From Dehalococcoidia bacterium (GTDB lineage: Bacteria > Chloroflexota > Dehalococcoidia > UBA2979): DNA of 64,000 nucleotides. The notes under the pieces are model-generated. The model was not told the DNA's origin. It did no database searches and worked only from the letters and a program-made list of their open reading frames with translations. Location: the NCBI GenBank assembly GCA_009692765.1, contig SHYQ01000001.1, positions 29,096 through 93,095 on the forward strand. Direction: 5' to 3'. The position numbers and the translations under genes were made by a program. This document shows positions 2,633 to 23,032 of this stretch, piece after piece; within the stretch, counting starts at the first letter, position 1, and each line of letters begins with the position of its first letter.

Positions 2633-2744
2633 GGCGCGCCTCCGATGCCCGGTCCGATGCTGCTCCGCCTCAGTCTAGTCGCGGCGCGCACTGCTGCACA
2701 TACCGCGCTGCTGCCCGGACTGGCCCGCTGGATATACTGGGGGC

Positions 2745-4085
2745 ATGGCGAGCAGCATCGACGCGGGGGAGGTGCTGGCGCGCATCGAGTCGCACCGGCG
2801 ATCCGCCGCCCCCGACGCGTTCCTCGCGCTGACACTGCCCCCGGACTTCGACCCCCGCCGCCTGCTGGACGACCCGCAGGGCGCGGGCGTGGTCGCCTCC
2901 TACGAACGTCCCTCCCAGGGCATCGCCATGGTCGCCATCGGCGAGGCGGCGCGTATCGAGGCGCCGTGGGGCGCCGGCCCGGGCGCGGTGGGCGTGCAGG
3001 CGCGCGCGCTGGTCGACCGGCCGGGGGGAGGCGACCTGCCGGGGCTGCGTCCTCGGCTGCTGGGCGGTTTTCGCTTCAACGCCTCCGCCGCGCCGCATGC
3101 CCCGTGGGAGGCGTTCGGCGCGGGCTGGTTGGTGCTGCCGCGCGTGCTGTTCCTCGCCACGGGCGAATCGAACGCGCTGATCCTCGCGCCCAGCGCGGAG
3201 GCGCACGACGTCGCCGCGCTCGTCGAGCGCGCCCAGCGCGCACCCGATATCGCCTCCGCCACAGCACTCCGCGTCGAGCAGCCGATGGACCGCGGGCGGT
3301 GGCTGGCGAGCGTCGCGACGATCGCCGCCGAGGTGCGCGCGGGGCTGTACGAGAAGGCCGTGCTCGCCTCGACGCAGCAACTCGCCGGCGATGCCCCGAT
3401 CTCCGTCGGCCGCGCGCTGGCGCGGCTGCGCGAGGACTACCCAGACTGCCACCTGTTCACGATGACCAGCGGCGACGCCACGTTCCTCGGTGCAAGCCCC
3501 GAACTGCTGGTCTCGCTGACGCGAGGCCGCGTGCGCGCGCTCGGGCTCGCGGGGTCAGCGCGGCGCGGCGTCGACCCCGAGGAGGACGAGCGGCTGGGTG
3601 CGGCGCTGCTCGAGAGCGCGAAGAACCGCATCGAGCACGAGACCGTGGTCCGCGCGATCCGCGAGCGGCTGGGCGGGGCGACGGAGGAACTGCTGGCGCC
3701 GAACCAGCCGCAACTCCGCCGCCTGCATAACATCCAGCACCTCTCGACCGAGATCAGCGGCCGCGTGCGGACGGGCGTCGACGTCCTCGACCTGGTGGAG
3801 CGGCTGCACCCCACGCCCGCCGTCTGCGGCTGGCCAGCCGACCGCGCTGGCGAGGTAATCGCGCGCCACGAGGCGTTCGACCGCGGCTGGTACGCGGGGC
3901 CGGTGGGGTGGATGGACGGCGCGGGGGACGGCGAGTTCGCCGTCGGTCTCCGCTCAGCGGTGGTCCGCGGGTCACGCGCGTGGCTCTTCGCCGGCAACGG
4001 CATCATGGGCGACTCCGCCCCGCAGTCCGAGCTGGACGAAGTGCAGCTGAAGTTCCTGGCCGTCGGCGAGGCGTTGGGCGCGTAA
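2745..4085 (+). CDS. menF: isochorismate synthase (menaquinone-specific, MenF-like)
   Basis: 446-aa chorismate-binding enzyme. C-terminal ...GWYAGPVGW...EFAVGLRSAVV...LFAGNGIMGDSAPQSELDE motif is typical of isochorismate synthases. Confidence 0.8.
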   Translation: MASSIDAGEVLARIESHRRSAAPDAFLALTLPPDFDPRRLLDDPQGAGVVASYERPSQGIAMVAIGEAARIEAPWGAGPGAVGVQARALVDRPGGGDLPGLRPRLLGGFRFNASAAPHAPWEAFGAGWLVLPRVLFLATGESNALILAPSAEAHDVAALVERAQRAPDIASATALRVEQPMDRGRWLASVATIAAEVRAGLYEKAVLASTQQLAGDAPISVGRALARLREDYPDCHLFTMTSGDATFLGASPELLVSLTRGRVRALGLAGSARRGVDPEEDERLGAALLESAKNRIEHETVVRAIRERLGGATEELLAPNQPQLRRLHNIQHLSTEISGRVRTGVDVLDLVERLHPTPAVCGWPADRAGEVIARHEAFDRGWYAGPVGWMDGAGDGEFAVGLRSAVVRGSRAWLFAGNGIMGDSAPQSELDEVQLKFLAVGEALGA

Positions 4086-7978: not shown

Positions 7979-9196
7979 TCACGGGTCGTACTCCAGCAGC
8001 GCGCGGCGGCGCTCCGGCAGCCGGTGCCACGGCTCCACCTCCACAACGCGCGCAAGCGGCGACTCGCCGAAGCGCACCTTCAGATGACGCACCATCTCGT
8101 CGAGCTGCTCTCGGCGGCGCGTCTGCTCCATGAACAGGCTGTGCTGCCGCCCGCTCTCCTCGGTCAGCCCCGCGAGCTCCAGCGTGACCAGCGAGAACGG
8201 GCCTGGGAACTCCGCGTACTCGACCAGCGTGCGCAGCACCGTCCACATCCGTCCGCGATCGCCCAGCGGATCGCGCAGCACCTGCTCGCGCTCCCAGAGC
8301 GCGCCGCGCTCCGTCTCCGCGCGCAGCCGGAGCAGCCGCACGAAGCGGCGCCGCGCGCGAGGCTGCCGCAAGGCGCGCCCCAGCATCTGCTCCAGCGCGT
8401 GCAGCACGGACTCGCGGCTGACCAGCGGCGGCTCCGCCTGCACGTGCTCCTCCACGCGCTCGCGCTCCCACGGTTGCGGTCGCACCGGCCGCGGGTCCTC
8501 GCCGCGCGCGGCGAGCCATGCGACGCCACCCTCGAGGCCGAACTGCGCCTCGATGGCCGCGCGCGGCAATGCGGCGAACGCGCCACAGCGCTCGATGCCG
8601 AGCAGGTGCAGCCGCTCGACCGCATCGACCTCGAGCGGGAGCCGCGACACCAGCTCCGTCGCGAGGAACGTCGCGGCCTCGGTGAGCGGCACGTGCACCA
8701 CGGCGTTCGGCTCCGCGCGGTGCGCGGCCATCAGCGCGGTGAAGCGTGCATCCGCGACGCCGAGCTGCGGGCACAGTTGCGGCGGCACCCCGCCGAACAC
8801 CGCGCGCTTGAGGTCGCCGAGGCGCGGGTACAGCCCTTCGGTGCCGCGCAGGTCCGCGAAGACGATGCCCTGTCCCGCCTCTTCCACGAGCGGGCTGACC
8901 GCACACATCGCCTCGACGAGGTCGCGCGCGAACCGCGCCACCAGCGCCGGCCGAGGCTCCACGACCGACAGCATCGGGCACAGCCCGACCGCATCCCGCA
9001 GCGTCATCCCCACGCGGACGCCATGTATGCGCGCCTCGGGCGTCACATCCAGGACGCGGGCGTGCGCCTCGTCGCTCAGCACGGCAGGCATCCCGGCCAG
9101 CCCCGGCCGCTCCACCAGTTCGCACTGGAATGCGAGCGACGGAATCGCGAGGCAGGCAACGGACGCGGCGCGCGGACGCGGGACGGCTCTCGACAT
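7979..9196 (-). CDS. imuB: ImuB (Y-family polymerase-like, catalytically inactive mutasome subunit)
   Basis: N-terminus ASVACLAIPSLAFQCELVERP, typical of ImuB/UmuC-fold proteins. Internal ATG at 9196 preceded by a GGGGGGAA SD. Positioned directly upstream of dnaE2. Confidence 0.8.
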   Translation of the reverse strand: MSRAVPRPRAASVACLAIPSLAFQCELVERPGLAGMPAVLSDEAHARVLDVTPEARIHGVRVGMTLRDAVGLCPMLSVVEPRPALVARFARDLVEAMCAVSPLVEEAGQGIVFADLRGTEGLYPRLGDLKRAVFGGVPPQLCPQLGVADARFTALMAAHRAEPNAVVHVPLTEAATFLATELVSRLPLEVDAVERLHLLGIERCGAFAALPRAAIEAQFGLEGGVAWLAARGEDPRPVRPQPWERERVEEHVQAEPPLVSRESVLHALEQMLGRALRQPRARRRFVRLLRLRAETERGALWEREQVLRDPLGDRGRMWTVLRTLVEYAEFPGPFSLVTLELAGLTEESGRQHSLFMEQTRRREQLDEMVRHLKVRFGESPLARVVEVEPWHRLPERRRALLEYDP

Positions 9197-9231
9197 GGTT
9201 CCCCCCGCCAGAAGGCAGGGGCAGTGTACAA

Positions 9232-9243
9232 GAACTGGTGTTC
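9232..9243. promoter_or_regulatory. Cheo-type LexA (SOS) box GAAC-N4-GTTC (aAGAACtggtGTTCTaa), ~36 nt upstream of the imuB start
   Basis: Seen directly as a palindrome with AGAAC/GTTCT arms and a 4-nt spacer. Matches the Gram-positive/actinobacterial LexA operator consensus (CGAAC-N4-GTTCG). It is the only such motif in this intergenic region. Confidence 0.5.
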
Positions 9244-9293
9244 TAATACGAGGGATAGGTTTGGCGGGGCGCTCGGCGGGTAACTGCGTGCGG

Positions 9294-10148
9294 TCAGTCC
9301 GCCGGAGCGAACCCCTCGTCGCCTTCGCGCAGCTGCCGGCTCGGACCAAGCACCCGCTGGATCGTCGCGCGGGCGGTCGCATACTGCCGGAGGCCCCACC
9401 CGTCCTCTCGCGCCATGCGCAGCGTCGCCGGTCGCGTGCCAGCGGCGAAGGTCCGGGATCGCGGCTGCATGTACTGCGATACGTACTCCGCAGCCTCTAG
9501 GCCGGCGATCGTGTGGGCGAAGGTTTCGACGTCATCCATCGGCAGCATTGGGCTCACCGCGACGCCGATGGGGACGCCGGCCTCACGAAGCGCACGCAAC
9601 GCCCGCAGTCGCACGCCGATCGCGGGCGCGCTCGCCTGCGGTACGAGGCGAGCGCGTTCTGAGTCCGTGGTCACCGAGACGTTGACGCGGATGTGATCGA
9701 ACTGCTGAAGCAGATCGATGTCACGCGTCACGATCGGGCTGCGGGTCTGGATAGTCAGCCGCGGCTGGACCCCGGCGGCAAGGATCGCCAGCAGGACCGA
9801 GCGTGTCAGCCCCAGCCGGTGCTCGGCTGGTTGGTAGGGATCCGTCGCACTGGACATGTACACCGTATCACCGGATCGGAGCGTGCCATCCTGGCAGGCC
9901 TTCGTGATCAGCGTGGCGGCATTCTGCTTGGCCGAGGCCCAGTCCCCCCAGGTGTCCCGCTTCGCCGGTGTCGGCGCGAACGAGCGCGCGTAGCAGTACT
10001 CGCACGCGAATCGACATCCCGAGTACGGGTTGAGCGTGTACTGGTAACGGCGGATGAAGCCGGAAGCGAGCGTCAGGATGGAGCGCTCGTCCACGAGCGC
10101 AATCCCGGCGCGCTTCCCTCTCCCCAGACCGCCGTCGAGGTCGCTCAT
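9294..10148 (-). CDS. radical SAM protein, SplB-like (spore-photoproduct-lyase / DNA repair photolyase family, COG1533)
   Basis: Iron-sulfur motif ...NPYSGCRFACEYCYARS... The nearest canonical radical-SAM pattern is C-x3-C-x2-C (CEYCYARSFAPTP), which fits the SplB-like family. Sits immediately upstream of the SOS box and imuB. Confidence 0.75.
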   Translation of the reverse strand: MSDLDGGLGRGKRAGIALVDERSILTLASGFIRRYQYTLNPYSGCRFACEYCYARSFAPTPAKRDTWGDWASAKQNAATLITKACQDGTLRSGDTVYMSSATDPYQPAEHRLGLTRSVLLAILAAGVQPRLTIQTRSPIVTRDIDLLQQFDHIRVNVSVTTDSERARLVPQASAPAIGVRLRALRALREAGVPIGVAVSPMLPMDDVETFAHTIAGLEAAEYVSQYMQPRSRTFAAGTRPATLRMAREDGWGLRQYATARATIQRVLGPSRQLREGDEGFAPAD

Positions 10149-10350
10149 GGCTGAAGGGTATGGGGTATCAGCAACCTGGCAAGCACCAGATGGCACTCAC
10201 GCAGCCGGCGCCAGCCACCCGTTCGCAACGCGCCCGTTCTTGTCTGGAGCCATTCCGACGCAGCCGGCTGCCTCGCAATCACAGCGTTGCCGGTTCGAGC
10301 GGCGTGGCAGGATCGCGACGCCACGACGGACGCGGGATAAGATGTAGCGA

Positions 10351-12162
10351 ATGGCCCTGCCCGCCGATCGCACCGTGCACGCGCTGTTGCAGTCGCTCTC
10401 CCGGAACGGGGTGCGGCACTTCGTGGTCGCCCCGGGCTCCCGCAACACGCCGATCACCATCGCCGCGACCGCGCCCGGGTCGCCGTTCCGCGTCTGGCTG
10501 CACCTGGACGAGCGCTCCGCGGGCTACTTCGCGCTCGGCATCGCGCGGCAGACCGGCGAGCCGGTGGCCGTCTGCTGTACCTCCGGTACCGCCGTCGCGA
10601 ACCTGCTGCCCGCCGCCGTCGAGGCGCGGCTGTCGCGCGTCCCGCTCATCCTCCTGACAGCCGACCGCCCGCCCGAGGCGCGCGACATCGGCGCGTCACA
10701 GACCATCGACCAGGTGGGGATCTTCTCGACGCACGTGAAGTGGGCGGCGGACCTGCCGGCAGCCGATGCGGGCGCGATCGACGACCTGGAGCGCTACGCC
10801 GCCGCGGCTGGCGCACGCGCCGCGGCAATCGCGTGCGAGGCCCCCGCCGGGCCGGTGCACCTGAACGTCCCCCTGCGGGAGCCGCTGGTCGACATTGACT
10901 CAGAAGAACTGCCGTTCGACCTCGGCGCGCCCGAGGTGCGGCGCGCGGTGGCCGCACCCTCCGTCCCGGCGCCCGCCGAGGTGGCGCGCGTCGTGAGCGC
11001 GGTCAGCGGTCGCCGGGGCGTGATCGTCTGCGGACCGGAGTCGGCCGGGCTGCCGGCCTCCGCCATCACCTCGCTCGCCGCGATCCTCGGCTGGCCGATC
11101 GTCGCAGACCCGCTGTCCGGGCTGCGCGCCGGGCGTCACCCGCTCGACGCCGTCATCGACCGCGCCGACGTGCTCGCCCGCGAGCCCGCGTTCACCGACC
11201 CCGCGACCCCCGAGGTGACGATCCGCTTCGGCGCGGCGCCGACCTCGAAGCCGCTCAACCAGTGGCTCACGACACTCGGTGATGCGCGGGGCAGAGGGGG
11301 CGCGACCCAGATCGTCGTCGACATGGCCGTCGCCGCGGGCGGCGGGTGGCGCGATCCGGACCTGCGCGCCGTGCTCGGCGTCGCCGCCGACCCCGGCGCG
11401 TTCTGCTCCACGCTCCTCGAAGCGCTCGACGCGCGGTCCGGCGCGCGCGCGGAGTGGCTTCCGCTGTGGCGCGATGCCAACGCCGCCGCGCGCACCGCGC
11501 TCGACGAGGCGATCGCGGACATCCGCGAGCCGTTCGAGGGCCAGGCCGTCGTCGACCTCGCAGGCGCGCTGTCTGAGGGCTCCACGCTCGTTGCCGGGAA
11601 CTCGATGCCCGTGCGCGATATCGACTCCTTCTTCCCGAACATGGACCGCGCGGTGCGGATCGTCGGCACGCGCGGCGCGAGCGGTATCGATGGCGTGACC
11701 TCGTCCGCGGTGGGCGCGGCGGCTGCGGCGTCGGTGGGGGCGGGGGGGGCGGTGGCGCTGCTGATCGGCGACCTGTCGTTCCTGCACGACATCAACGGCC
11801 TGTGGCCGGTACGTCGCCACGACCTGAGCCTCACCGTGGTGCTGGTGAACAATGACGGCGGCGGCATCTTCTCCTTCCTGCCGCAGCGCACGAGCATGCC
11901 CGCGCGCTTCGAGGAGTGGTGGGGCACGCCGCACGGCCTCGACCTGCGCCACGCCGTGGCGTTGCACGGCGGCCGCCACGCGCTGATGGACCATGGCCCG
12001 ACGAGCGGGGCGAGCGCGGCGATCGGCGACGCGCTCCAACGGCCGGGCCTCAACGTGCTGGAGCTGCGCACCGATCGCGACCGCAACGTGGCGCTGCACC
12101 AGCAGGTCTGGGCGCGCGCCACCGAGGCGGTGCGCCACGCCGTGGTCGCGGCGCGGGCATAG
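10351..12162 (+). CDS. menD: 2-succinyl-5-enolpyruvyl-6-hydroxy-3-cyclohexene-1-carboxylate synthase
   Basis: 603-aa ThDP enzyme. N-terminus HFVVAPGSRNTPITIA...CCTSGTAVANLLPA is diagnostic of MenD. Confidence 0.9.
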   Translation: MALPADRTVHALLQSLSRNGVRHFVVAPGSRNTPITIAATAPGSPFRVWLHLDERSAGYFALGIARQTGEPVAVCCTSGTAVANLLPAAVEARLSRVPLILLTADRPPEARDIGASQTIDQVGIFSTHVKWAADLPAADAGAIDDLERYAAAAGARAAAIACEAPAGPVHLNVPLREPLVDIDSEELPFDLGAPEVRRAVAAPSVPAPAEVARVVSAVSGRRGVIVCGPESAGLPASAITSLAAILGWPIVADPLSGLRAGRHPLDAVIDRADVLAREPAFTDPATPEVTIRFGAAPTSKPLNQWLTTLGDARGRGGATQIVVDMAVAAGGGWRDPDLRAVLGVAADPGAFCSTLLEALDARSGARAEWLPLWRDANAAARTALDEAIADIREPFEGQAVVDLAGALSEGSTLVAGNSMPVRDIDSFFPNMDRAVRIVGTRGASGIDGVTSSAVGAAAAASVGAGGAVALLIGDLSFLHDINGLWPVRRHDLSLTVVLVNNDGGGIFSFLPQRTSMPARFEEWWGTPHGLDLRHAVALHGGRHALMDHGPTSGASAAIGDALQRPGLNVLELRTDRDRNVALHQQVWARATEAVRHAVVAARA

Positions 12163-12175
12163 GCCGGCTCGCGCC

Positions 12176-13018
12176 GTGCCCGACGCGATTGCGCGCGATA
12201 TCGAGATCGACGGTCTGAGCCTCCACGTCGAACGCGCCGGGAGCGGGCCCCCCGTCGTGCTGCTGCACGGCTTCACCGGCTCCGGCGCATCGTGGGCTCC
12301 GCTCCTCGAGGTGCTCGCGCCTGACTTCACGACGCTGGCCGTCGACCTCGTGGGCCACGGCCGGTCGGGGCATCCGGCGGCGAACGATCGCTACCGGATG
12401 CGCCGCGCCGTGGACGACCTGGCCGCGCTGCTCCACGCGCTGGGGCACGAGCGCGCCGCGTGGCTCGGCTACTCGCTCGGTGGGCGCACGGCGCTCCAGG
12501 TCGCCGTGCATCGCCCGGAGGTCGTCTCCGCGCTGATCCTCGAGGGCGCGACGCCCGGCTACGCGACGCCCGAGGAGCGCGCCGCGCGGGTCGCCGCCGA
12601 CGAGGCGCTGGCGCTGCGCCTAGAACGCGAGGGGCTGGAGGCGTTTGTCGACTACTGGCAGGCGATCCCGCTGTGGGACAGCCAGCGGCACACGCTGACC
12701 GACGAGCAGCGCGCGGCGCTGCGCCGGGGCCGCCTCGCGCAGCACCCGGCCGGCCTCGCGGGCTCGCTGCGGGGGATGGGCACGGGGGCGCAGGACTGGG
12801 TGGGCGACCGCCTGGGCAAGGTGCGCGTGCCTGTGCTGCTGACGGCAGGTACGCTGGACACTAGGTTCAGCGCTATCGCCCGCGAGATGGCGGCGGTGAT
12901 CCCGGACAGCGCCGTGCGGCTGATCGACAATGCCGGACACGCCGCCCACCTCGAGCGGCCGGCGGCCTTCAACACGCTGGTGCGCGATTTTCTGATCGGC
13001 GTGCGCGGACGGCTGTAG
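12176..13018 (+). CDS. menH: 2-succinyl-6-hydroxy-2,4-cyclohexadiene-1-carboxylate synthase (alpha/beta hydrolase)
   Basis: GTG start after the menD stop. HGFTGSG...GYSLGGR alpha/beta-hydrolase nucleophile elbow. Position between menD and menB. Confidence 0.75.
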
Positions 13019-13020
13019 GA

Positions 13021-13878
13021 GTGCGGCAGGTGGGGACTGAAGGGCTCATGAGCGACATTCGCTGGCAGCCGGTACGGACGTACACCGACATCCTCTACGA
13101 CAAGGCGGGGGGGATCGCGAAGATCACGATCAACCGCCCCGAGGTGCACAACGCCTTCCGTCCGCTGACGATCGATGAACTCAGCGCGGCGTTCGTGGAC
13201 GCCGCGCAGGACGACGCGATCGGCGTGGTGCTGTTCACCGGCGCGGGCGGGCGCGCCTTCTGCTCCGGCGGCGACCAGCGCATCCGCGGCCACGCCGGGT
13301 ACGTGGACACCGAGGGGGCAGCGCGCCTGAACGTGCTCCCGCTGCAGCGCTTCATCCGCGAGATGCCGAAGCCGGTGATCGCCCTGGTCGCCGGGTACGC
13401 CATTGGCGGCGGGCACGTGCTGCACGTGATCTGCGACCTGACGATCGCCGCGGAGAACGCGCGCTTCGGGCAGACCGGCCCGCGGGTCGGATCGTTCGAT
13501 GCGGGGTACGGCGTGTCGATGCTGGCGCGGCTCGTCGGCACCAAGAAGGCGCGCGAGATCTGGTACCTCTGTCGCCAGTACGGCGCGCAGGAGGCGCTGG
13601 CGATGGGGCTGGTCAACGCCGTCGTCCCGCTCGACGATCTGGAGGCGGAGGGCGTGCGCTGGGCGAATGAGATCCTCGCGAAGTCGCCGACCGCGATCCG
13701 CTTCCTGAAGAACGCCTTCCTCGCCGACACCGACGGCGCGACCGGCCTGCAGGTGCTCGCCGGCGACCTCACGATGCTGTACTACACGACCGACGAAGCG
13801 AAGGAGGGACGCAACGCTTTCGTCGAGAAGCGCCAGCCTGACTTCACGAAGTTCGCGCGGCTGCCGTTCCATGGCTGA
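13021..13878 (+). CDS. menB: 1,4-dihydroxy-2-naphthoyl-CoA synthase
   Basis: Crotonase-fold protein with FCSGGDQ...[19 protein letters not shown]...GSFDAGYG motifs. Confidence 0.9.
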
Positions 13879-14785
13879 TTCGCCGCCGCCCGGTCCGCTG
13901 GCTGCGCCGGGCCGCCTGCGCGTGTGGGCGATGGCGATCCGCCCGGCCACGCTGACCGCAGCGGTAGTGCCGGTGGCGGTGGGCACCGGAGTCGCCGTGC
14001 ACGACGGCGTGCGCGCCCCCCTCGCGGCGCTCGCGGCGCTGATTGGGGCGCTTGCGTTGCAGGCCGGCGCGAACCTCGCGAACGACCTCTCGGACTTCCG
14101 CCGCGGCGCGGACACCGCGGCGCGCCTCGGCCCGATGCGCGTCACCCAGCACGGACTGCTCAGCGAGCGCCAGGTGACGATCGGCGTCGTCGTCTGCTTC
14201 GCGCTCGCAACGGTCGTCGGGCTGTACCTCACCACCCTCGGCGGCTGGCCGATCGTCGTGATCGGCGTCGCTGCGATGCTCGCGGCGGTGACGTACACCG
14301 GCGGGCCGTGGCCCTTCGGCTACCGCGGCCTCGGCGAGCTCTTCGTGTTCATCTTCTTCGGCGTGGTCGCTGTCGCGGGCACCTACTACGTGCAGGCGGG
14401 GGGCGTGACCGCCGGTGTCTTCGCTGCGTCGCTCCCGGTGTCGCTGACCGTCACGGCGATTCTCGTCGTGAACAACGTGCGCGACATCGATACCGATCGG
14501 CTGGCGGGGAAGTACACGCTGGCCGTCTACCTTGGCCGCCGCCTGGCGCGGACGGAACTCGTGGTCGTCGTCGGGGGGGCGTACGTGGCGGCGGCGGCGC
14601 TCTGGCTGCTGGGCGACTTCTCCGGCTGGGTGCTGCTGTCGTGGCTGTCGGTGCCGGCCGCCGTCGTCCCGGTGGCGGTGGTGCTGCGTCGCACGGACGG
14701 TCCGCCGCTGAACGCGGCGCTGCGGGCGATGGCACGGCTGCACCTGATCTTCGGGCTGCTGCTGGCGATCGGGCTCTCCACCTGA
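13871..14785 (+). CDS. menA: 1,4-dihydroxy-2-naphthoate polyprenyltransferase
   Basis: 304-aa polytopic UbiA-fold membrane protein with [11 protein letters not shown] and [10 protein letters not shown] Asp-rich motifs. 8-nt overlap with menB. Confidence 0.85.
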
Positions 14786-14838
14786 CGCCCCCGCGAGGGG
14801 ACGCCGCGCGTATCCGCTGGCGCGCGTTCCGGCTGCCG

Positions 14839-15960
14839 ATGCGCCATCGGTTCGAGGCGGCGCACGGCGCGATTGCGGATCGCCGGGGCGTGCTCATCGA
14901 GATCGCGGACGGCGAGGGCTACGTGGGCGTCGGCGAGGCTTCCCCGATCCCCTCACTCGGCTACGGCACCGTCGAGGACGTGCTCGTGCTGCTCCAGCGC
15001 TACGGTGCGGCGCTGCCGGCAACGCTCGATCTGCTCCATGCGCTCGACCCGCGTGCACCCGGCGTGCTGGCGCTGCGCTGCGCAGTCGACGTGGCCGCGC
15101 TGGACCTCGAAGGGCGACGCGCGGGGCGGTCGGTGGCTTCGCTGCTCTCGACGGCCGCGACGAACGTTGCGTCCGCGGTGCGCGTCAACGCCGTGATCGG
15201 CGAGGGTGCCCCCGAGGAGACCGCGCGCTACGGCCGCGGGGCGGCCGCGCAGGGCTACGCCGTGCTGAAGGCGAAGGTCGGCAGCGCCGCGCTCGCGGAG
15301 GATGTGCGGCGCATCGCCGCGCTGCGCGAAGCTTGCCCCGGCGTCGCGATCCGCCTCGACGCGAACGGCGCGTGGGACGAGGCGACGGCGGTCGCCGCCC
15401 TCCGTGCGTTCGCCCCCCACGGCATTGAGCTGATCGAGCAGCCCGTCGCCGCAGGGGAGGTCGAGGCGCTGGCGCGGGTGCGTGCCGCCGCGCACGCGCT
15501 CGGTGCCGCGACGGGGGGCGGACCGCTGATCGCCGCCGACGAAGCAGTCGCCGACCAGGACACCCTCGCGCGCGTCTTCGAGCAGCGCGCCGCCGACCTC
15601 GTGGTGCTGAAGCCGATGTTCCTCGGCGGGCTGCGGCCCGCCGTCGCGATCGCGCAGCGCGCCGCCGCCTGCGGCATGGGCGCGTTCGCGACGACGACGT
15701 TCGACTCCTCGATCGGGACGGCGGCGGCGCTGCACCTGGCTTGCGCGATGGATGGGGCCGGCGAGATCGCGCACGGGCTGGGCACCGGCGAGCACCTGAC
15801 GGCCGACCTCGTGGTGCACACGCTGGTCGCGCGGGATGGCATGCTCTCGCTACCGTCGGGCGCCGGACTGGGCGTCGCACCGGAGGAGGCGGCATGGCAT
15901 CGTGTGGCCGAGGGCGACTGGATCACTGCGCCGTACGCGCACCCGCCGTGGCGGCCGTAG
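14839..15960 (+). CDS. menC: o-succinylbenzoate synthase (enolase superfamily)
   Basis: FRLPMRHRFEAAHG...VLKAKVG...IRLDANGAWD...IEQP motifs. The start could be a non-ATG codon slightly upstream, around 14812. Confidence 0.75.
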   Translation: MRHRFEAAHGAIADRRGVLIEIADGEGYVGVGEASPIPSLGYGTVEDVLVLLQRYGAALPATLDLLHALDPRAPGVLALRCAVDVAALDLEGRRAGRSVASLLSTAATNVASAVRVNAVIGEGAPEETARYGRGAAAQGYAVLKAKVGSAALAEDVRRIAALREACPGVAIRLDANGAWDEATAVAALRAFAPHGIELIEQPVAAGEVEALARVRAAAHALGAATGGGPLIAADEAVADQDTLARVFEQRAADLVVLKPMFLGGLRPAVAIAQRAAACGMGAFATTTFDSSIGTAAALHLACAMDGAGEIAHGLGTGEHLTADLVVHTLVARDGMLSLPSGAGLGVAPEEAAWHRVAEGDWITAPYAHPPWRP

Positions 15961-15989
15961 CGCGCCCGCAGCCGCCCGTGGAGGGACCG

Positions 15990-17534
15990 ATGACCCTGAC
16001 GCCCGCGACCACCGGCACGCCGCTGCTCTCCGTCGAGCTCTGCGACTGGGTCGCCCGGCGCGCCTCGACGCACGCCGAGGTGATCGCCGTCGAGTGCGGC
16101 GACGAGCGCCTGACGTATCGCGCACTCGACGCGCGCGTAGGCGCGGCGGCGGCGCGTCTCGTCGCGCTCGGTGTCCGCGCGGGCGAACCGGTGGGGCTGT
16201 TGCACGCGAACGACAACGGCTTCGCCCTCTTCGTGCACGCGATCACCCGGGCCGGTGCGCTCTGCGCGCCCTTCAACGCGCGGCTGACGGTGAGCGAGAT
16301 CGCATGGCAACTGCGCGATGCCGGCGCGCGCTACCTCATCGCAGATGCGGCCAACGCCGAGCACGCGGCGCTCGCCCGCGCGGCGGCCGAGGAGGCCGGT
16401 GTCACGCTGCTCGCGGCGGGGGACGCTGCGTGGCGCGGTGCTCCGCCGGGCGCTGGCGTACCGATCGCCGAGCCGGAGGCGGTTCCCTTTGATCGCCCCC
16501 ACAGCCTGCTCTACACCTCGGGCACCACGGGGCGGCCGAAGGGGGTGGTGCTGACGCACGGCAACTTCTACTGGAGCGCCGTCGCGTCCGCGGAGCACCT
16601 CGGCGTCGCGTCCGACGACCGCTGGCTCGCCTGCCTGCCGCTGTACCACGTCGGCGGGCTGTCGATCCTGCTGCGCAGCGCGATCTACGGCACGACCGCC
16701 GTCATCCACGAGCGCTTCGATGAGGCGCGGGCCGTGCGCGCGCTGCGCGAGGAGCGCGTGACGCTGCTGTCCGTGGTCGCGAACATGCTCCAGCGGATGC
16801 TAGCGCTCGACGGCGAGGCGTACCCCTCGACGGTGCGCGCCGTGCTGCTGGGCGGCGGCCCCGCGCCGCGCCCGCTGCTGGAGGCCTCGGCGGCGCGCGG
16901 GCTGCCCGTGCTGCAGACGTACGGGCTGACCGAGACGGCGTCGCAGGTTGCCACGCTCTCCCCGGCGGACGCGCTCCGCAAACTGGGGTCGGCGGGGCTG
17001 CCGCTGCCCGGCACCACCGTGCGCATCGAGATCGAGGGCGTCGAGGCCGCGACCAGCGAGGTCGGCGAGATCATGGTGGCCGGGCCGACCGTGTGCGCGG
17101 GCTACCTGCACCGATCCGACGAGACGGCGCGGGCGATCCGCGGCGGCTGGCTGCACACCGGCGACCTCGGCTACCTCGACGCCGAGGGCTACCTGTACAT
17201 CGCCGACCGGCGCGACGACCTGATCATCTCCGGCGGCGAGAACGTCTACCCCGCGGAGGTGGAGTCCGCGCTGCTCGCGTTCCCCGGCATCGAGGAGTGC
17301 GCCGTCGTCGGCCTCCCCGACGAGCGCTGGGGGGCGCTGGTGGTCGCGGTGATCGTGCCGAGCGGCGCCGGCGCCTCGGGTATCGAGGTCGCCGCCGTGG
17401 AGGCGCACCTCCGCGCGCGCCTCGCGGGGTACAAGGTGCCGCGGCGCGTCGAGGTCACCGCGGAGCCGCTCCCACGCACCGCCTCCGGCAAGGTCCAGCG
17501 CCACCTCGTGCGCGAGCGGCTCCTCCCAGCGTAG
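15990..17534 (+). CDS. menE: o-succinylbenzoate--CoA ligase
   Basis: ATG at 15990 after a GAGGGA SD. Adenylate-forming motifs YTSGTTGRPKG, YGLTE, GWLHTGDLGYLD, GKVQR. Confidence 0.85.
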   Translation: MTLTPATTGTPLLSVELCDWVARRASTHAEVIAVECGDERLTYRALDARVGAAAARLVALGVRAGEPVGLLHANDNGFALFVHAITRAGALCAPFNARLTVSEIAWQLRDAGARYLIADAANAEHAALARAAAEEAGVTLLAAGDAAWRGAPPGAGVPIAEPEAVPFDRPHSLLYTSGTTGRPKGVVLTHGNFYWSAVASAEHLGVASDDRWLACLPLYHVGGLSILLRSAIYGTTAVIHERFDEARAVRALREERVTLLSVVANMLQRMLALDGEAYPSTVRAVLLGGGPAPRPLLEASAARGLPVLQTYGLTETASQVATLSPADALRKLGSAGLPLPGTTVRIEIEGVEAATSEVGEIMVAGPTVCAGYLHRSDETARAIRGGWLHTGDLGYLDAEGYLYIADRRDDLIISGGENVYPAEVESALLAFPGIEECAVVGLPDERWGALVVAVIVPSGAGASGIEVAAVEAHLRARLAGYKVPRRVEVTAEPLPRTASGKVQRHLVRERLLPA

Positions 17535-17643
17535 CGAGGAGCCTCGCGGTCCGCCGCGGCCTCGCCCGCGCTGGCGTGTTGACGTGGGGCGGGGGTGCGC
17601 GACAATCGCCTTCCACCCGACGGATCGCGGGAAGGTCTGCCCG

Positions 17644-18870
17644 ATGCCCGACCCACTGTCTGAGAACACCACCTACCTCGATCTGCACGTGCATTCCGCG
17701 GACGGTTCGGACGACGCGGGTGGCACGGTCGAGGGCTACCTGAAGTGGATCACCGCGCGCCGCGCGCACGGTCTCCGCATCGATGGCTTCGTGGTCACCG
17801 AGCACCGCCGTTTCGACCCGGACCGCGACTACTCGGCGCTCGCCGCGCGCTACGGTGCGATCGTGCTGCGCGGCGTGGAGGTGGAGACCGACATCGGGCA
17901 TGTGCTGGTCTTCGGCGTGACGCCGGAGTTCCTGAGCCGGTTCGATCTGACCTCCATCTCGCTGCCCTCGGAGGAGGTCTTCCGCGCCGCCTGGGAGACC
18001 GGTGGCGTTGCTGTGGGCGCGCACGCGGGGCGTCCGCGCATCGGCTGCGTCGAGCACGTCGATGAACGCGGCGTCACGCTCGAGGGCGTCCATGTCCTCG
18101 AGGCGCTGAACGGCGGCAGCAACGACTACGAGAACGGGCGCGCGTTCGACCTCGCAGACGCGCGGGGGCTGCGGGCCGTGGGCGGATCCGACGCGCACTT
18201 CGTCAGCGCGCTCGGCGGCTGCCTGACGCGCTTCGACCGCGCGATCCACACGGTCGACGACCTGGTTGCCGCGCTGCGCGACCCGGCGGCGGCGTACACG
18301 CCGATCTACCTAGAGGACACCGCGGAGGGCGTGGAACCGCGCCCCCGTCCCTCCGGCACGCCGGTGCTCCAGCCGTTCTCCAGCGGCCAGGGCACCCTCG
18401 GCGGCGACGTGATCGAGTACGACCGCAGCGTCGTGGGGCGCGAGGTGCTGGTCGGCAGCTTCGAGGTCACGCGCGAGCTCATCGCCAGTTTCTGTCAGGC
18501 GCTCGACGAGCGGAACCCGCTGTACACGGACGAGGCGTTCGCCGCGCAGGGCCCGCACGGCGGGATCATCGCGCCGCCCGGCATCATTCAGGCGGTGCGC
18601 ATGGGTCCGGCGCCCAACCCCGGCGTGAAGTTCGGCAGTTCGACGATGATGGCGGGGCAGTTGCACGAGTACTACCTGCCGGTGCGCCCGGGCGACACCA
18701 TCGAAGGCTTCGCGCAGGTGCGCGAGGTCTATGAGAAGACCGGCCGCAGCGGCCGTATGGTCTTCGTGGTGCGGCGCACCCGGTTCGCCAACCAGCACGG
18801 CGAGGACGTGGCCGCCTTGCAGACCACCAGCGTGCATCGCGAGATGCGTCCCGTGGGAGAGGCGGAATAA
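17644..18870 (+). CDS. fusion protein: N-terminal PHP-domain metal-dependent phosphoesterase plus C-terminal MaoC/HadA-like hotdog domain
   Basis: LDLHVHSADGSDD...GVEVET...HVLVFG...GGSDAHF (PHP fold), followed after ~aa 290 by a hotdog-like segment (PGDTIEGFAQVREVYEKTGRSGRMVFVVRRTRFANQHGEDVA). Confidence 0.65.
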   Translation: MPDPLSENTTYLDLHVHSADGSDDAGGTVEGYLKWITARRAHGLRIDGFVVTEHRRFDPDRDYSALAARYGAIVLRGVEVETDIGHVLVFGVTPEFLSRFDLTSISLPSEEVFRAAWETGGVAVGAHAGRPRIGCVEHVDERGVTLEGVHVLEALNGGSNDYENGRAFDLADARGLRAVGGSDAHFVSALGGCLTRFDRAIHTVDDLVAALRDPAAAYTPIYLEDTAEGVEPRPRPSGTPVLQPFSSGQGTLGGDVIEYDRSVVGREVLVGSFEVTRELIASFCQALDERNPLYTDEAFAAQGPHGGIIAPPGIIQAVRMGPAPNPGVKFGSSTMMAGQLHEYYLPVRPGDTIEGFAQVREVYEKTGRSGRMVFVVRRTRFANQHGEDVAALQTTSVHREMRPVGEAE

Positions 18871-18871
18871 C

Positions 18872-19330
18872 GTGGACGATGCACTGACCCAGCGCTACTT
18901 CGAAGAAGTCGCCGTCGGCGATGAGTTCGAAGAGTGGCAGCAACCGACCAGCCCGCACGTGGCCGCGTTTACCGCCATCTCGGGAGCGCTGGCCGGCGAT
19001 GGCCGCTTCCACGATCACGCGGCCGCGCGGGCCGCCGGCCTCGAAAAGGCGATCGTGCCGGGGCCGATGTCGGCCTCCATGCTCACGCGCCTGGTGACGG
19101 ACTGGATGGGGCCGCTCGGCCGCGTCCTGAGCCTGGACGTCTCATACCGGCGTCCGGCGTACCACGACGATCGCCTGCGCTGCGTGGCGCTGGTCACGGA
19201 CGTGAACGGCGACGGCGACTACGAGGGGACCGGCGAGGGCGCGGTGCACCTGGACGTGACGATGGAGAGCGAGCGCGGCGACAAGCCGGTGCAGGGCACG
19301 GCGATCGTCGTCATGCCGCGCCGGGGCTAG
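18872..19330 (+). CDS. MaoC-like (R)-hydratase/dehydratase hotdog protein, copy 1
   Basis: GTG start after a GGGAGAGG SD. ...AGDGRFHDHAAARAAG... resembles the hydratase-2 motif (D-x-N-P-x-H-like, with His present). Confidence 0.7.
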   Translation: MDDALTQRYFEEVAVGDEFEEWQQPTSPHVAAFTAISGALAGDGRFHDHAAARAAGLEKAIVPGPMSASMLTRLVTDWMGPLGRVLSLDVSYRRPAYHDDRLRCVALVTDVNGDGDYEGTGEGAVHLDVTMESERGDKPVQGTAIVVMPRRG

Positions 19331-19826
19331 GCGAGATCCGCCGGTGCGGTCCGGCCGCGCCACGGTCGGCGATCCGCTGCCCGTGCAGCGTTACCTCGAA
19401 GATGTCTCCGTCGGCGACATGTTCGAGGAGACGCAGCAGCCCACGCACGCGCAGGTGGTGGAGTTTCTCGACATCACAGGGCTGTTTCCGGGAGACGCGC
19501 GGATCACCGACGCCGAGACGGCCCGCGCCGCCGGCCTCGAGGCGGCGATCGTGCCGGGCCCCATGTCGGCCTCCATGCTCACGCGGCTGGTGACGGACTG
19601 GATGGGCCCGCTCGGTCGCGTGCTAAGCCTCGATGTCTCGTACCGGCGGGCGGTGTGGCACGACGATCGCCTGCGCTGCGTCGCGCTGGTCACCGATGTC
19701 AACGGCGACGGCGACTTCGAGGGCACGGGCGAGGGCGCGGTGCATCTGGATGTGACCCTGGAGAACGAGCGCGGGGAGAAGCCGGTGCAGGGCACGGCGA
19801 TCGTCGTGATGCCCCGCCGGGCGTAG
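19049..19826 (+). repeat. tandem gene duplication: ~280-bp segments 19049-19330 and 19547-19826 are ~88% identical at the nucleotide level
   Basis: Direct comparison of the two hotdog gene 3' halves, including the shared ...ggcacggcgatcgtcgt(c/g)atgcc(g/c)cgccggg... ends. Confidence 0.7.
19344..19826 (+). CDS. MaoC-like hotdog protein, copy 2 (tandem paralog; lacks the His of the hydratase motif)
   Basis: C-terminal ~95 aa are near-identical to copy 1 (IVPGPMSASMLTRLVTDWMGPLGRVLSLDVSYRR...VQGTAIVVMPRR). Confidence 0.7.
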   Translation: MRSGRATVGDPLPVQRYLEDVSVGDMFEETQQPTHAQVVEFLDITGLFPGDARITDAETARAAGLEAAIVPGPMSASMLTRLVTDWMGPLGRVLSLDVSYRRAVWHDDRLRCVALVTDVNGDGDFEGTGEGAVHLDVTLENERGEKPVQGTAIVVMPRRA

Positions 19827-19847
19827 GCGGCGCGCCCCCAGCCCGCG

Positions 19848-20585
19848 TTACGCGTTCGTGTCCGCCGCGGGCGCCCCGCCACTCGGCGCCCCGCGACGCT
19901 TCGCCTGCAACTGCTCCATCACGCGCTCCAACGTCTCGTACTCCTGAGCACCGACTACGGCGTACTGCTCGTCGAGGATGAACGTCGGGATCGCCTGCAC
20001 GCCGACCGCGTAGGACTGCTCGATGCCCTCGTTCACCGTCTGCAGGTGGGCGCCGCTGACCAGCGCCGCGCGCAGTGCCGCGCCGTCCAGTCCGACCGCG
20101 TCGGCGTGCCGCACCAGCACGTCCGCATCCATCAGGTTCTCGAAGTCGGTGAAGTACGCCTTGAACAGCGCGCGGTGGTAGTCCATCACCTGCCGGACGG
20201 TCCCGTGCTGGCGCGCGAACTCACCGGCCTGCAGCGCGAGGAGCGTGTGCGGCGTGAACGTCCTGCCGCGGCGGAATTCGAGGCCCAGCCGCTTGCCCCG
20301 CGCCTCCACGGGCGTCTCGGGGCTATCGGGCGCCTGCGGCTGGCGCGGCCGTCCCTCGGGCGGGATCGAGGGGTCGAGGAAGAACGGAGCCCAGTCGAGC
20401 TCGATGTCCCAGTGTTCGTAGAGCCGTTCGACCTCCACGAGGCCGATGTAGCACCACGGTCAGATGAAGTCCGAGACGATCGTAAGCCGCAACGGGCCCG
20501 TGCGTTCTTCGTCGGTGCGGGCGTGGGCGTGGGCGTGGGCGTCGGTCACATCAGTCTCCAGCCGTGCGGACGGTCCGCGGGTCAT
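19848..20585 (-). CDS. DsbA/FrnE-like thiol:disulfide oxidoreductase with in-frame TGA (candidate selenocysteine) in a U-P-W-C active-site motif
   Basis: Two same-frame track ORFs (20460..20789 and 19848..20438) are separated by a single stop. Minus-strand reading: ...TIVSDFI-TGA-PWCYIGLVEVERLYEHW... TGA occupies 20460-20462, exactly where DsbA/FrnE proteins have the first Cys of CPWC. A hairpin (GGCCUC-GUG-GAGGUC, extendable to 8 bp) lies ~14 nt downstream. Start uncertain (ATG 20585 or TTG 20492). Confidence 0.5.
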
Positions 20586-20676
20586 GTGAGAGCGCGGCAG
20601 CAGCATAGCGCAGCGGCCAAGGGCGGGTCGCGGGTGTCCGTTCGTGCGGGCCGCGCGAGCCGTGTTATCGTCGGCG

Positions 20677-21873
20677 ATGGTGACCGTCGAACAACAGTTC
20701 CCGACCCCCGTGACGAATGCCACCGAGGTGGCTTCGATCGCCGTCGCGATTGCGCGGGCGGGGTGGTTCGCGCTCGACCTCGAGTTCATGACCGAGGGGC
20801 GCTACGTCGCGGATCTCTCGCTGGTGCAGGTGGGCTGGGGCGATCACGAGTCCCCCACCGTCGCCGCGATCGACCCGCTGGAGGTCGACGCCCGCCCCGT
20901 CATCGAGCTCGTGGCGCGCGACGACGTCGAGGTCGTCCTCCACTCGGCGCAGGCCGACCTCGCGTTGATCGGCGCCGCCTTCGGCGTGCGTGCGACGCGC
21001 GTCTTCGACACCCAGATCGCAGCGGCGTTCTTGGGGCTGGGTGAGCAGATCGGCTACGGCGCGCTCGTCGAGCGCATGGCGGGCGTGCGCCTGGACAAGG
21101 GCGCGCAGTACACCGAGTGGTCGCGCCGCCCGCTTTCCGATGACCAGCTGCGCTATGCGCTGGACGACGTGCGCTACCTGCCCGCCGTCTGGCTGCAACT
21201 GCGGCAGCAGCTCGAGTCGCGCGGGCGCACCGCGTGGGTGCAGGAGGAGTGCGATCTCCTGGCGGACGCGTGGGCGGAACGCACGCCGCCGGACGAGATG
21301 TACCGCCGCGTCCGGGGCTGGAACGGCCTCAAGCGCCGCTCGTTGGGCGCGCTGCGTGCGGTCGCCGCGTGGCGCGAGCAGGAGGCGCTGCGGACCAACC
21401 GCCCGCCCTCGTGGATCATGAACGACCGGTCGCTGCTCGAACTCGCCCGCCGCCCCCCGCGCGAGGCCGCCGACCTGGGCGCGGTGCGCGGGCTGGGCGA
21501 GGGGACGGTGCAGCGCTACGGCGCGGCGATCCTAGAGGTGGTGGAGCGCGGCGTGAACGACCCGCCCGAGGATGAAGCCACCCCACCGCGCCTCCCGAAC
21601 CTCGGGCAGGCATGGCCCGCCATCCTCAGCGGCATCGTGCAGGCGCGCTGCTGTGAGGCGGAGATCGCGGCGCGCTTCGTGGCCACGCGCCACGAGATGG
21701 ACGAGATGATCGCGTGGTGGCTCACCGGCGATCGCGCGCAAGAGCCGCAGCTCCCGCTGCTGCGCGGCTGGCGTCGCGAACTCGCCGGGCGCGACCTGCT
21801 GGACTGGCTTCGCGGCGAGACGACCGTCGCCGTGGACATGCACACCGAGGCCGGCGTCCGCATCCAGCGCTAG
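20677..21873 (+). CDS. rnd: ribonuclease D (3'-5' exonuclease plus HRDC domain)
   Basis: DLEFMTEGRY...LHSAQADL DEDDy exonuclease motifs plus a C-terminal HRDC-like region. An alternative start at 20644 is possible. Confidence 0.8.
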   Translation: MVTVEQQFPTPVTNATEVASIAVAIARAGWFALDLEFMTEGRYVADLSLVQVGWGDHESPTVAAIDPLEVDARPVIELVARDDVEVVLHSAQADLALIGAAFGVRATRVFDTQIAAAFLGLGEQIGYGALVERMAGVRLDKGAQYTEWSRRPLSDDQLRYALDDVRYLPAVWLQLRQQLESRGRTAWVQEECDLLADAWAERTPPDEMYRRVRGWNGLKRRSLGALRAVAAWREQEALRTNRPPSWIMNDRSLLELARRPPREAADLGAVRGLGEGTVQRYGAAILEVVERGVNDPPEDEATPPRLPNLGQAWPAILSGIVQARCCEAEIAARFVATRHEMDEMIAWWLTGDRAQEPQLPLLRGWRRELAGRDLLDWLRGETTVAVDMHTEAGVRIQR

Positions 21874-22076: not shown

Positions 22077-23032
22077 ATGAGTGAGCACGACACCCCCGAC
22101 ATCCTCGACCCGATGGCGGTCGCCCTCCGCGCGAGCGGGCCGCGCATCTCCTGCCGGATCTTCACCCGCCGCACCTCCACGTGGCTGCTGGCGGGCGGGG
22201 CGATGACCGTCCTCGCCGCCTGCGGCAGCGCCGCCGCCACGAAGGAGGAGGTCGCGGTGCTCCGCAAGGAGGTCACCGCGCTCAAAGGCGAGGGCGCCAA
22301 GGCCACCGATGCGCATGGCGCTCCCGGCGCGACCACCGCGAAGCACTGGGAGTACGCGGGCGCGAACTGGCCGGAGAAGTGGGGCGAGCTCGCTCCCGAG
22401 AACGCGGTCTGCAGCGCCGGCTCCACGCAGTCGCCGATCGACATCGCGGGGACGCAGCTGGGCGCGATGGGGCCACGAACATCAAGTGGCAGCCCGCGGC
22501 GCTGAACGTGGTGAACAACGGCCACACGATCCAGGCCGACGTGGCCAACGGCGGCGTCATAGAGGTCGATGGCGTGCCGTACACGCTGGTGCAGTTCCAC
22601 TTCCACGCCCCCTCGGAGCACACGGTCGGCGGGAAGCGCTTCGCGATGGAGACGCATTTCGTGCACAAGAGTGCGAAGGGCGAGCTCGCTGTGATCGGCG
22701 TGCTGCACGAGGCCGGTGACGCGAACGAGGCGCTCGCCCCGCTCTGGAGCGCGCTCCCGAATACGACCGAGGAGAAGAAGCCGCTCGCGAAGTTCGACCT
22801 CGCCTCCGTGCTGCCGGCCGACCGCTCGATGTACCGCTACGCCGGATCGCTCACCACCCCGCCGTGCACCGAGGGCGTGCGCTGGCAGCTGCTCCAATCG
22901 CCCACCTCCGTCTCCGACGCGCAGGTGAAGGCGCTCAACGCGATCATCAAGCCGAACGCCCGCCCGATTCAGCCGCAGAAGGCGCGCGACGTGCTCAAGG
23001 AGGCGCTCGCGAAGCTGACCGCGAACAGGTAG
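22077..23032 (+). pseudogene. alpha-class carbonic anhydrase lipoprotein, interrupted by a +/-1 frameshift near 22467-22472 (G-run)
   Basis: N-terminal part (lipobox LAAC; HWEYAGANW...QSPIDIAGTQLGAMG) is in frame 3. The remainder (NIKWQPAALNVVNNGHTIQ...FHFHAPSEH...SLTTPPCTEGV) is in frame 2. Restoring one G in the GGGG run gives a contiguous alpha-CA of normal length. Either a true pseudogene or an assembly indel. Confidence 0.75.

Follow-up and report, generated by a model that had tools for sequence, protein, structure and literature searches.

Directly behind the menaquinone (men) operon of a Dehalococcoidia bacterium of the phylum Chloroflexota (assembly GCA_009692765.1, contig SHYQ01000001.1, positions 29,096 to 93,095 of the forward strand), three genes encode a predicted enzyme module in which a PHP-type metallohydrolase is joined to hotdog-fold subunits that lack the catalytic residues of the hydratases they resemble. 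We propose this module as a plausible candidate for the MenI step of menaquinone synthesis in Chloroflexota, that is, the release of 1,4-dihydroxy-2-naphthoate from 1,4-dihydroxy-2-naphthoyl-coenzyme A (DHNA-CoA), and give this assignment a probability of about 35%. The proposal is based on the persistent linkage of the module to men genes, on the lack of any other hotdog-fold gene in the men cluster, and on the precedent of the carbaryl hydrolase McbA. To our knowledge, the DHNA-CoA hydrolysis step is unassigned in many phyla, including Chloroflexota, and we know of no characterised enzyme that, like this module, pairs an apparently active PHP site with hotdogs devoid of hydratase residues. 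The sequence examined, hereafter the window, is a stretch of 64 kb with 72% G+C, to which all window-level negative results refer; its proteins are identical to those of a Dehalococcoidia metagenome-assembled genome (MAG).

A PHP-hotdog module behind menE

The module consists of three open reading frames (ORFs), the first of which has two domains:

17644-18870 (+), ORF A, 408 amino acids, PHP metallohydrolase fused to a HadA-like hotdog domain
17644-18321 (+), PHP domain of ORF A, residues ~1-226, with the full set of metal ligands
18430-18867 (+), HadA-like hotdog domain of ORF A, residues ~263-408
18872-19330 (+), ORF B, 152 amino acids, HadB/MaoC-like hotdog subunit, paralogue 1
19344-19826 (+), ORF C, 160 amino acids, HadB/MaoC-like hotdog subunit, paralogue 2

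The men genes of the window are the following, menD, menH, menB, menA and menE each being identified by an NCBIfam equivalog match above cut-off:

10351-12162 (+), menD
~12245-13018 (+), menH
13021-13878 (+), menB
13871-14785 (+), menA
14839-15960 (+), menC, 100% identical to NCBI 'o-succinylbenzoate synthase'
~15990-17534 (+), menE
2679-4082, menF, nearby, upstream of menD-H-B-A-C-E (10351-17534)

ORFs A, B and C lie on the same strand as menE, and a gap of 109 nucleotides separates the menE stop (17534) from ORF A; the GTG start of ORF B lies 1 nucleotide past the ORF A stop, with GGGAGAGG just before it. An earlier note on this DNA, made from the sequence alone and referred to here as the original prediction, had described the gene order menD-H-B-A-C-E with menF nearby and three hotdog-fold coding regions right after menE, and both descriptions are borne out by the profile matches and, for menC, by sequence identity. 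It had also remarked on the lack of a recognisable DHNA-CoA thioesterase in the operon. In agreement with this, the 20 short and mid-size ORFs of the window that were examined include no 4HBT-family protein, and the men cluster contains no hotdog-fold gene other than those of the module. An Rfam scan of positions 9000-21000 returned no riboswitch or other RNA element at the gathering threshold.

The PHP domain of ORF A

ORF A is assigned to the PHP superfamily on the basis of a Pfam match to PHP_C (4e-15, residues 162-212), a match to the NCBIfam CehA/McbA metallohydrolase domain (1.8e-15, residues 13-189; below cut-off, with 57.2 bits against 80, and covering profile positions 6-183 of 315), its conserved ligands and an AlphaFold2 model. 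Pfam PF02811 itself, the PHP profile named in advance for the fusion, gave no match to ORF A. The model, built on 39 homologues (mean predicted local distance difference test score 90.6, predicted template modelling score 0.83), comprises a PHP barrel (residues ~1-226), a linker (227-262) and a hotdog domain (263-400). The predicted fusion to a HadA-like half therefore holds, with a PHP part of ~226 amino acids instead of the ~270 first proposed.

In Foldseek searches the PHP part of the model matches PsfC, TM0559 and RNase AM, and PsfC and the stand-alone TM0559-like proteins are also close to it in size. Profile searches against PDB sequences gave remote matches only (9etk, 3e0f, PsfC, RNase AM, 2yb1 and YcdX), with E-values of 1e-4 to 1e-2 and a best value of 6.7e-5. 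ORF A shares with PHP hydrolases such as 2yb1, RNase AM (7ug9), YcdX, PsfC (7rty) and CehA/McbA both the barrel fold and the ligand set of HxH, Glu, His, His and Asp-x-His. It differs from them in forming a subfamily of its own, tied to hotdog subunits, that scores under the threshold of every characterised subfamily tested, namely nucleoside bisphosphate phosphatase, RNase AM and CehA/McbA (for instance, 14.8 bits against a cut-off of 400 for NF041577). More remote PHP relatives (33-40% identity) are stand-alone or Kelch-fused and occur in unrelated gene contexts, and are thus uninformative.

Across Chloroflexota, Myxococcota, Binatia and Proteobacteria, the residues D13, H15, H17, D24, E53, H54, R55, E79, E81, H86, H127, R130, H138, E153, N156, D183 and H185 of the PHP domain are invariant. 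As these residues include all the metal ligands of a PHP site, with other polar residues in addition, the PHP domain of ORF A is probably catalytically active as a metalloenzyme.

A hotdog pair without the hydratase dyad

The C-terminal half of ORF A matches Pfam FAS1_DH_region (1.6e-21, residues 262-390) and NCBIfam HadA (3.3e-7; 30.7 bits against an equivalog cut-off of 180), and Foldseek relates it to MaoC-like proteins, HadA and ChsH1/2. ORF B and ORF C both pass the Pfam MaoC_dehydratas cut-off of 27 bits (30.0 bits, 4.2e-7, and 28.0 bits, 1.8e-6, respectively) and also match NCBIfam HadB (27.7 and 27.1 bits against an equivalog cut-off of 203; 2.1e-6 for ORF B). They are 77% identical to each other, and their earlier description as paralogous MaoC-like proteins is correct. 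The module thus contains both halves of a hotdog pair, one FAS1_DH/HadA-like and one MaoC/HadB-like.

The hydratase motif is degenerate in the hotdog domain of ORF A, where E289 takes the place of the Asp, Y294 that of the His, and 'PPG' stands where 'HG' is expected. Within the family, the position of E289 is Glu or Asp in ~95% of members and that of Y294 is Tyr or Phe, and a hairpin of the same domain (Y363-E-K-T-G-R-S-G370-x-M-x-F374) is fully or almost fully conserved in each of the two phylum groups in which the module occurs. In the HMMER alignment of ORF B to HadB, the catalytic Asp36 is replaced by Ala and the catalytic His41 by Phe46. The 84 HadB-like subunits aligned share the motif R45-F46-[T/S]47-D48, with no Asp/His pair and with 'PG' in place of 'HG'. 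These two alignments rule out the claim that one of the paralogues keeps the hydratase-motif His: His47 of ORF B misses the catalytic position by one residue, and of the 84 family members 50 have Thr and 15 have Ser at this site. ORF C carries the typical family motif R-[F/I]-T-D, His47 of ORF B being the exception. As the Asp/His dyad is absent from both hotdog halves in every member examined, a conventional (R)-hydratase of the HadAB type is unlikely, and from these alignments the pair looks like a binding scaffold, or like a catalyst of another kind.

Like HadAB/HadBC of Mycobacterium tuberculosis, the module combines HadA-like (FAS1_DH_region) and HadB-like (MaoC) hotdogs encoded by adjacent genes, with alternative partner subunits (here ORF B and ORF C). 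This likeness, which had been pointed out before, is one of architecture and not of catalysis. In every module member Asp36 of HadB is replaced by Ala or a variable residue and His41 by Phe; the HadB-like subunit is the one duplicated, and as a lineage-specific event (see below), whereas in mycobacteria it is the HadA-like partner that varies (HadA versus HadC); and a PHP metallohydrolase is fused or adjacent to the hotdogs. The module could still be read as an ordinary heterodimer in the manner of HadAB/HadBC or ChsH1-ChsH2, working as an (R)-specific enoyl-CoA hydratase or a (3R)-hydroxyacyl dehydratase, with the PHP domain as an accessory: its best family matches are FAS1_DH_region, MaoC_dehydratas, HadA, HadB and ChsH, and its two-subunit design with alternative partners recalls HadAB/HadBC. 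However, the dyad and the 'HG' element are gone from both subunits family-wide, the scores fall far under the HadA and HadB equivalog cut-offs, and such an enzyme would leave the strictly conserved PHP site without a role; we consider this reading very improbable.

Distribution and composition of the module

ORF A is 100% identical to a protein of a Dehalococcoidia MAG and has 258 homologous clusters, more than 100 of which are full-length fusions; with over 100 independent clusters sharing the same fused architecture, an assembly or frameshift artefact can be rejected. In a scan of one genome per species, the module was present in at least 126 species. The 80 loci retrieved from these comprise a Chloroflexota group and a group of MAGs of Myxococcota, Binatia and Proteobacteria (41-50% identity); some Dehalococcoidia homologues originate from TARA ocean samples.

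When considering all these loci, the real unit is a PHP domain, a HadA-like subunit (hotdog-a) and one HadB-like subunit (hotdog-b). The module is fused in most Chloroflexota. Its parts are encoded by three adjacent separate genes in L046, L054, L083/84 and the P0107 contig (GCA_041447075.1), as well as in all non-Chloroflexota loci examined, and their order in L056 is hotdog-a, hotdog-b, PHP. That these parts occur fused, split and reordered suggests that PHP, hotdog-a and hotdog-b work together.

The number of HadB-like copies varies among close relatives, from one in L003-L007 to three in L008, the nearest relative with a duplication, where the tandem genes (L008:11227-12650) are 76%, 64-69% and 54% identical to ORF B/ORF C. 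Judging from these copy numbers and identities, the ORF B/ORF C tandem is a recent lineage-specific duplication, and the HadB-like partner has expanded repeatedly in this lineage. ORF B and ORF C differ mainly within residues 26-50, of which 36% are identical, and the ratio of nonsynonymous to synonymous substitution rates (0.26) indicates that both genes are under purifying selection.

The folds involved are known; the searchable literature contains no description of their combination or of the lost hydratase dyad. Our searches found no paper combining 'PHP domain' with MaoC, nothing relevant joining DUF35, MaoC and phosphoesterase (the only match being an unrelated gene table), and nothing on MenI in Dehalococcoidia. 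The fusion, which the original prediction did not recognise as a familiar arrangement, is accordingly without a description in what could be searched, and database names for the proteins are generic ('MaoC family dehydratase N-terminal domain-containing protein', 'acyl dehydratase/TrpH', 'hypothetical').

Linkage to men genes in Chloroflexota

The module is persistently linked to men genes in Chloroflexota: a men gene lies within 10 kb in 38 of the 51 Chloroflexota loci with adequate flanks, and at least five men/module arrangements occur in total. In the first, the module directly follows menE, as in the window. In the second, it directly follows menC, with no menE or AMP-ligase gene within 10 kb (L046, L049-L053, L083/84 and the P0107 contig); these clusters read menD-H-(B)-A-C and continue with the PHP and hotdog genes and a gene of no Pfam family, named 'unk' here. 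In the third, the men operon is inverted and runs convergently towards the module (L023, L024, L028, L029, L040 and L045), and in the remaining two the module and the men operon are split by inserted cassettes, of 6 kb in L011 and of 11 kb in L025/L091. In a tree of the PHP domain, these arrangements are found throughout the Chloroflexota clade, and module and operon have become separated several times independently. The position of menB is also variable, as this gene is found away from the operon in several lineages, for instance ~3 kb downstream in L002.

Two ideas on the clusters lacking menE were considered. A replacement of MenE by the module has no supporting chemistry, and menE may be located elsewhere in those genomes. 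A family III CoA-transferase bypassing MenE and MenI was rejected, since such genes occur mainly in loci without men genes and not in the menE-less clusters.

Evidence against a MenI function and competing readings

Several observations weigh against the MenI assignment. No men gene is found within 10 kb of the module in 13 Chloroflexota loci with adequate flanks, one of which (L025) has its men operon ~11 kb away, and one MAG has its men operon on a contig other than that of the module. The block that contains the module also keeps the unrelated genes for RNase D, peptidase M10 and DUF983, together with a DsbA-like gene and DoxX; as these genes are conserved in the same Dehalococcoidia block, part of the men linkage is inherited synteny. 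Furthermore, the Dehalococcoidia men neighbourhoods L093 (11104-14328) and L094 (11101-14128) are without the PHP-hotdog and MaoC genes, their order menFDHACE-unk-DoxX-DsbA-menB being the same as in L002. Outside Chloroflexota, men genes are near the module in none of the 23 loci. The co-conservation of the module with men genes that the original prediction put forward for checking is mixed: it is seen in 38 of the 51 Chloroflexota loci with adequate flanks, and is missing in these 23 loci and in L093/L094. What accompanies the module in 18-19 of the 23 is a Thiolase_C_1 gene (SCP-x-type thiolase) with a DUF35 gene (zf-ChsH2 + OB_ChsH2_C), placed either upstream on the same strand, usually after an alpha/beta hydrolase gene, or downstream and convergent. 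In the Myxococcota clade with the downstream convergent placement, coaE, encoding dephospho-CoA kinase, is directly upstream of the PHP gene.

Evidence from the window and from relatives points the same way. A sigma-70-like promoter match (TTGACG-16-GACAAT, 17579-17606, +; a consensus match only) is located in the gap between menE and ORF A and is the sole promoter-like match in 9400-20700, where shuffled sequences give a mean of 0.3; the module may thus be transcribed separately from the men operon. Two other genes are alternative MenI candidates in relatives. One is 'unk', of ~200 amino acids, which lies between the end of the men operon and the PHP module and is linked to that end as tightly as the module itself in about 35 Chloroflexota loci (e.g. 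L002:9296-9913 on the minus strand, L028:2394-2975 and L083:6049-6636). Its motifs read …LVSKFEPGFA…NHCPG..FAR.ML..W..CTGT.PP, and it has kept its place beside menE in L011 and L025 and beside the PHP module in L041. The window lacks this gene, the best tblastn match there having an E-value of 0.02. The other is a 4HBT-family gene, L091:1-172 (minus strand), which lies ~5 kb upstream of menF in the same genome as L025; its region has no counterpart in the window. Finally, a thioesterase has no obvious need of a PHP domain of phosphoesterase type.

Many of these observations would be explained if the module were a general acyl-CoA unit, acting as an accessory to thiolase and DUF35 proteins in beta-oxidation-like or aldolase chemistry, and if its position next to men genes were inherited gene order. 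The thiolase/DUF35 pair recurs in two arrangements, often with the alpha/beta hydrolase, the hotdog parts resemble ChsH1/ChsH2, and Chloroflexota loci without men genes often contain genes for family III CoA-transferase, acyl-CoA dehydrogenase, short-chain dehydrogenase/reductase or enoyl-CoA hydratase; the unrelated genes retained in the men block and the absence of the module from L093/L094 fit as well. The gene set around the module in Myxococcota, Binatia and Proteobacteria loci, and only there, is reminiscent of the ChsH1-ChsH2-Ltp2 system of steroid side-chain degradation, in which heterodimeric MaoC-like hotdogs, DUF35 and an SCP-x/thiolase-like protein are associated. However, the PHP component has no counterpart in ChsH/Ltp2, and a ChsH-like hydratase-aldolase route needs a hydratase, of which the module lacks the catalytic dyad. 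Moreover, no DUF35 or thiolase gene is present in the operon of the window, and a thiolase or DUF35 cluster member is near the module in only one or two Chloroflexota loci. The men linkage, for its part, outlasts inversion, loss of menE and cassette insertion, whereas RNase D and DsbA are not always retained. On balance, we regard a general acyl-CoA unit as slightly less likely than the MenI assignment, which remains our preferred reading.

The coaE association raises the question of the phosphoesters of the CoA moiety. A coaE cluster directly upstream of the PHP gene occurs in eight loci of the Myxococcota clade, and in the four that were scanned (L079:7326-8048, L081:4668-5303, L066:1509-2153 and L075:8814-10015; Pfam 5e-46 to 5e-50) coaE ends ~6 nucleotides before the PHP gene. 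This neighbourhood points to the CoA nucleotide, with its 3'-phosphate, rather than to the thioester. The PHP domain might accordingly serve as a phosphoesterase for the nucleotide portion of an acyl-CoA held by the hotdogs, removing the 3'-phosphate or cleaving the diphosphate, such that the module would degrade or edit particular CoA esters and dephospho-CoA kinase would restore CoA. The domain has the fold and the complete metal site of PHP phosphoesterases, its closest relatives of solved structure include 2yb1 (a 3',5'-nucleotide bisphosphate phosphatase), RNase AM and 3e0f, and the Joint Genome Institute labels the ORF A family TrpH-like. In addition, the invariant K-T-G-R-S-G hairpin of hotdog-a could bind phosphate. 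Yet the similarity to characterised phosphatases is weak, as the NF041577 score and the PDB E-values above illustrate, the coaE linkage is limited to one clade and concerns a housekeeping gene, and there is no known pathway with a 3'-dephospho acyl-CoA. PsfC, the best structural match of the PHP part, is not known to be a phosphoesterase. We thus hold a phosphoesterase function to be unlikely, and return to DHNA-CoA hydrolysis as the favoured role.

Proposed role in DHNA-CoA hydrolysis

We envisage ORFs A, B and C as one conserved multi-subunit enzyme with an intact PHP-type metal hydrolase, which would be physically coupled to the HadA-like hotdog, by fusion here and as the product of an adjacent gene elsewhere. 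The HadA-like subunit would pair with a HadB-like subunit, duplicated in this bacterium into two variants with different pocket regions. The resulting heterodimer would mainly recognise and hold an acyl-CoA thioester, Glu289 being possibly a residual catalytic acid, and the PHP metal centre would carry out or complete the chemistry on this ester. The acyl group would most likely be released by hydrolysis; a cut at a phosphoester in the nucleotide part of CoA is the less likely reaction. In Chloroflexota the gene neighbourhood suggests a substrate from the MenE/MenB part of menaquinone synthesis, so that the most likely job would be the MenI step. The more specific version of this scheme, in which the catalyst is the PHP metal centre rather than any hotdog residue and the two catalytically dead hotdogs are interchangeable adaptors that present the CoA thioester (DHNA-CoA in Chloroflexota), is in our view doubtful.

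DHNA-CoA, the Dieckmann product of MenB, and the products of thiolases are all Claisen-type beta-keto thioesters, a shared chemistry that could unite the men and thiolase contexts of the module. Known DHNA-CoA thioesterases have been recruited independently from different hotdog subfamilies (YdiI, Slr0204 and plant DHNAT). These enzymes and the MenI proteins of Listeria and Staphylococcus share with the module the hotdog fold and, in some organisms, a location in or near men genes. They are small homo-oligomeric hotdogs of the 4HBT type, unlike the module, which is a MaoC/HadAB-type heteromer with a PHP domain. ORFs A, B and C do not belong to the 4HBT/YdiI/Slr0204-type thioesterase families: ORF B (18.0 bits) and ORF C (13.4 bits) are below the Pfam 4HBT cut-off of 20.6, and ORF A has no match. 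As for the PHP domain, three His residues in a predicted PHP-like domain of the carbaryl hydrolase McbA are crucial for the hydrolysis of a naphthyl carbamate (PMC8292978). PHP-type domains can thus hydrolyse non-phosphate esters of a naphthol. Of the NCBIfam profiles, the CehA/McbA metallohydrolase domain gives the PHP part of ORF A its best match, though one under the cut-off.

Neighbouring genes

Next to the module, in the window and in many relatives, is a gene of the DsbA family:

19848-20560 (-), DsbA-like gene, convergent with the module, Pfam DSBA 3.5e-23, 5' end at 20560 approximate

An in-frame TGA at 20460-20462 occupies the position of the first Cys of its CxxC motif (…TIVSDFI-TGA-PWCYIG…), and mechanical ORF calling shortens the gene at this codon. 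In related loci the same position is TGA in 22 cases and TGC/TGT in 8, a selenocysteine/cysteine pattern that makes the gene a candidate selenoprotein gene. A hairpin starting 4 nucleotides past the UGA has a folding energy of -22 kcal/mol (z = -1.5), which is not significant alone.

About 2 kb downstream of the men/PHP region, the window also encodes an alpha-type carbonic anhydrase (Pfam 'Eukaryotic-type'; 22085-23029, +, 9e-36). Some MenB enzymes depend on bicarbonate.

Implications

If the PHP metal centre is indeed the catalyst and the hotdogs are its adaptors, the module would represent a new enzyme class, either a PHP-type metallo-thioesterase or a CoA-ester-specific phosphoesterase, and in Chloroflexota a non-homologous replacement of MenI, with ORF B and ORF C conferring two substrate specificities. 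Once known, its reaction would provide an annotation for hundreds of proteins now named 'MaoC family dehydratase N-terminal domain-containing', and it may reveal a new CoA-ester chemistry in abundant uncultured Dehalococcoidia, Myxococcota and Binatia.

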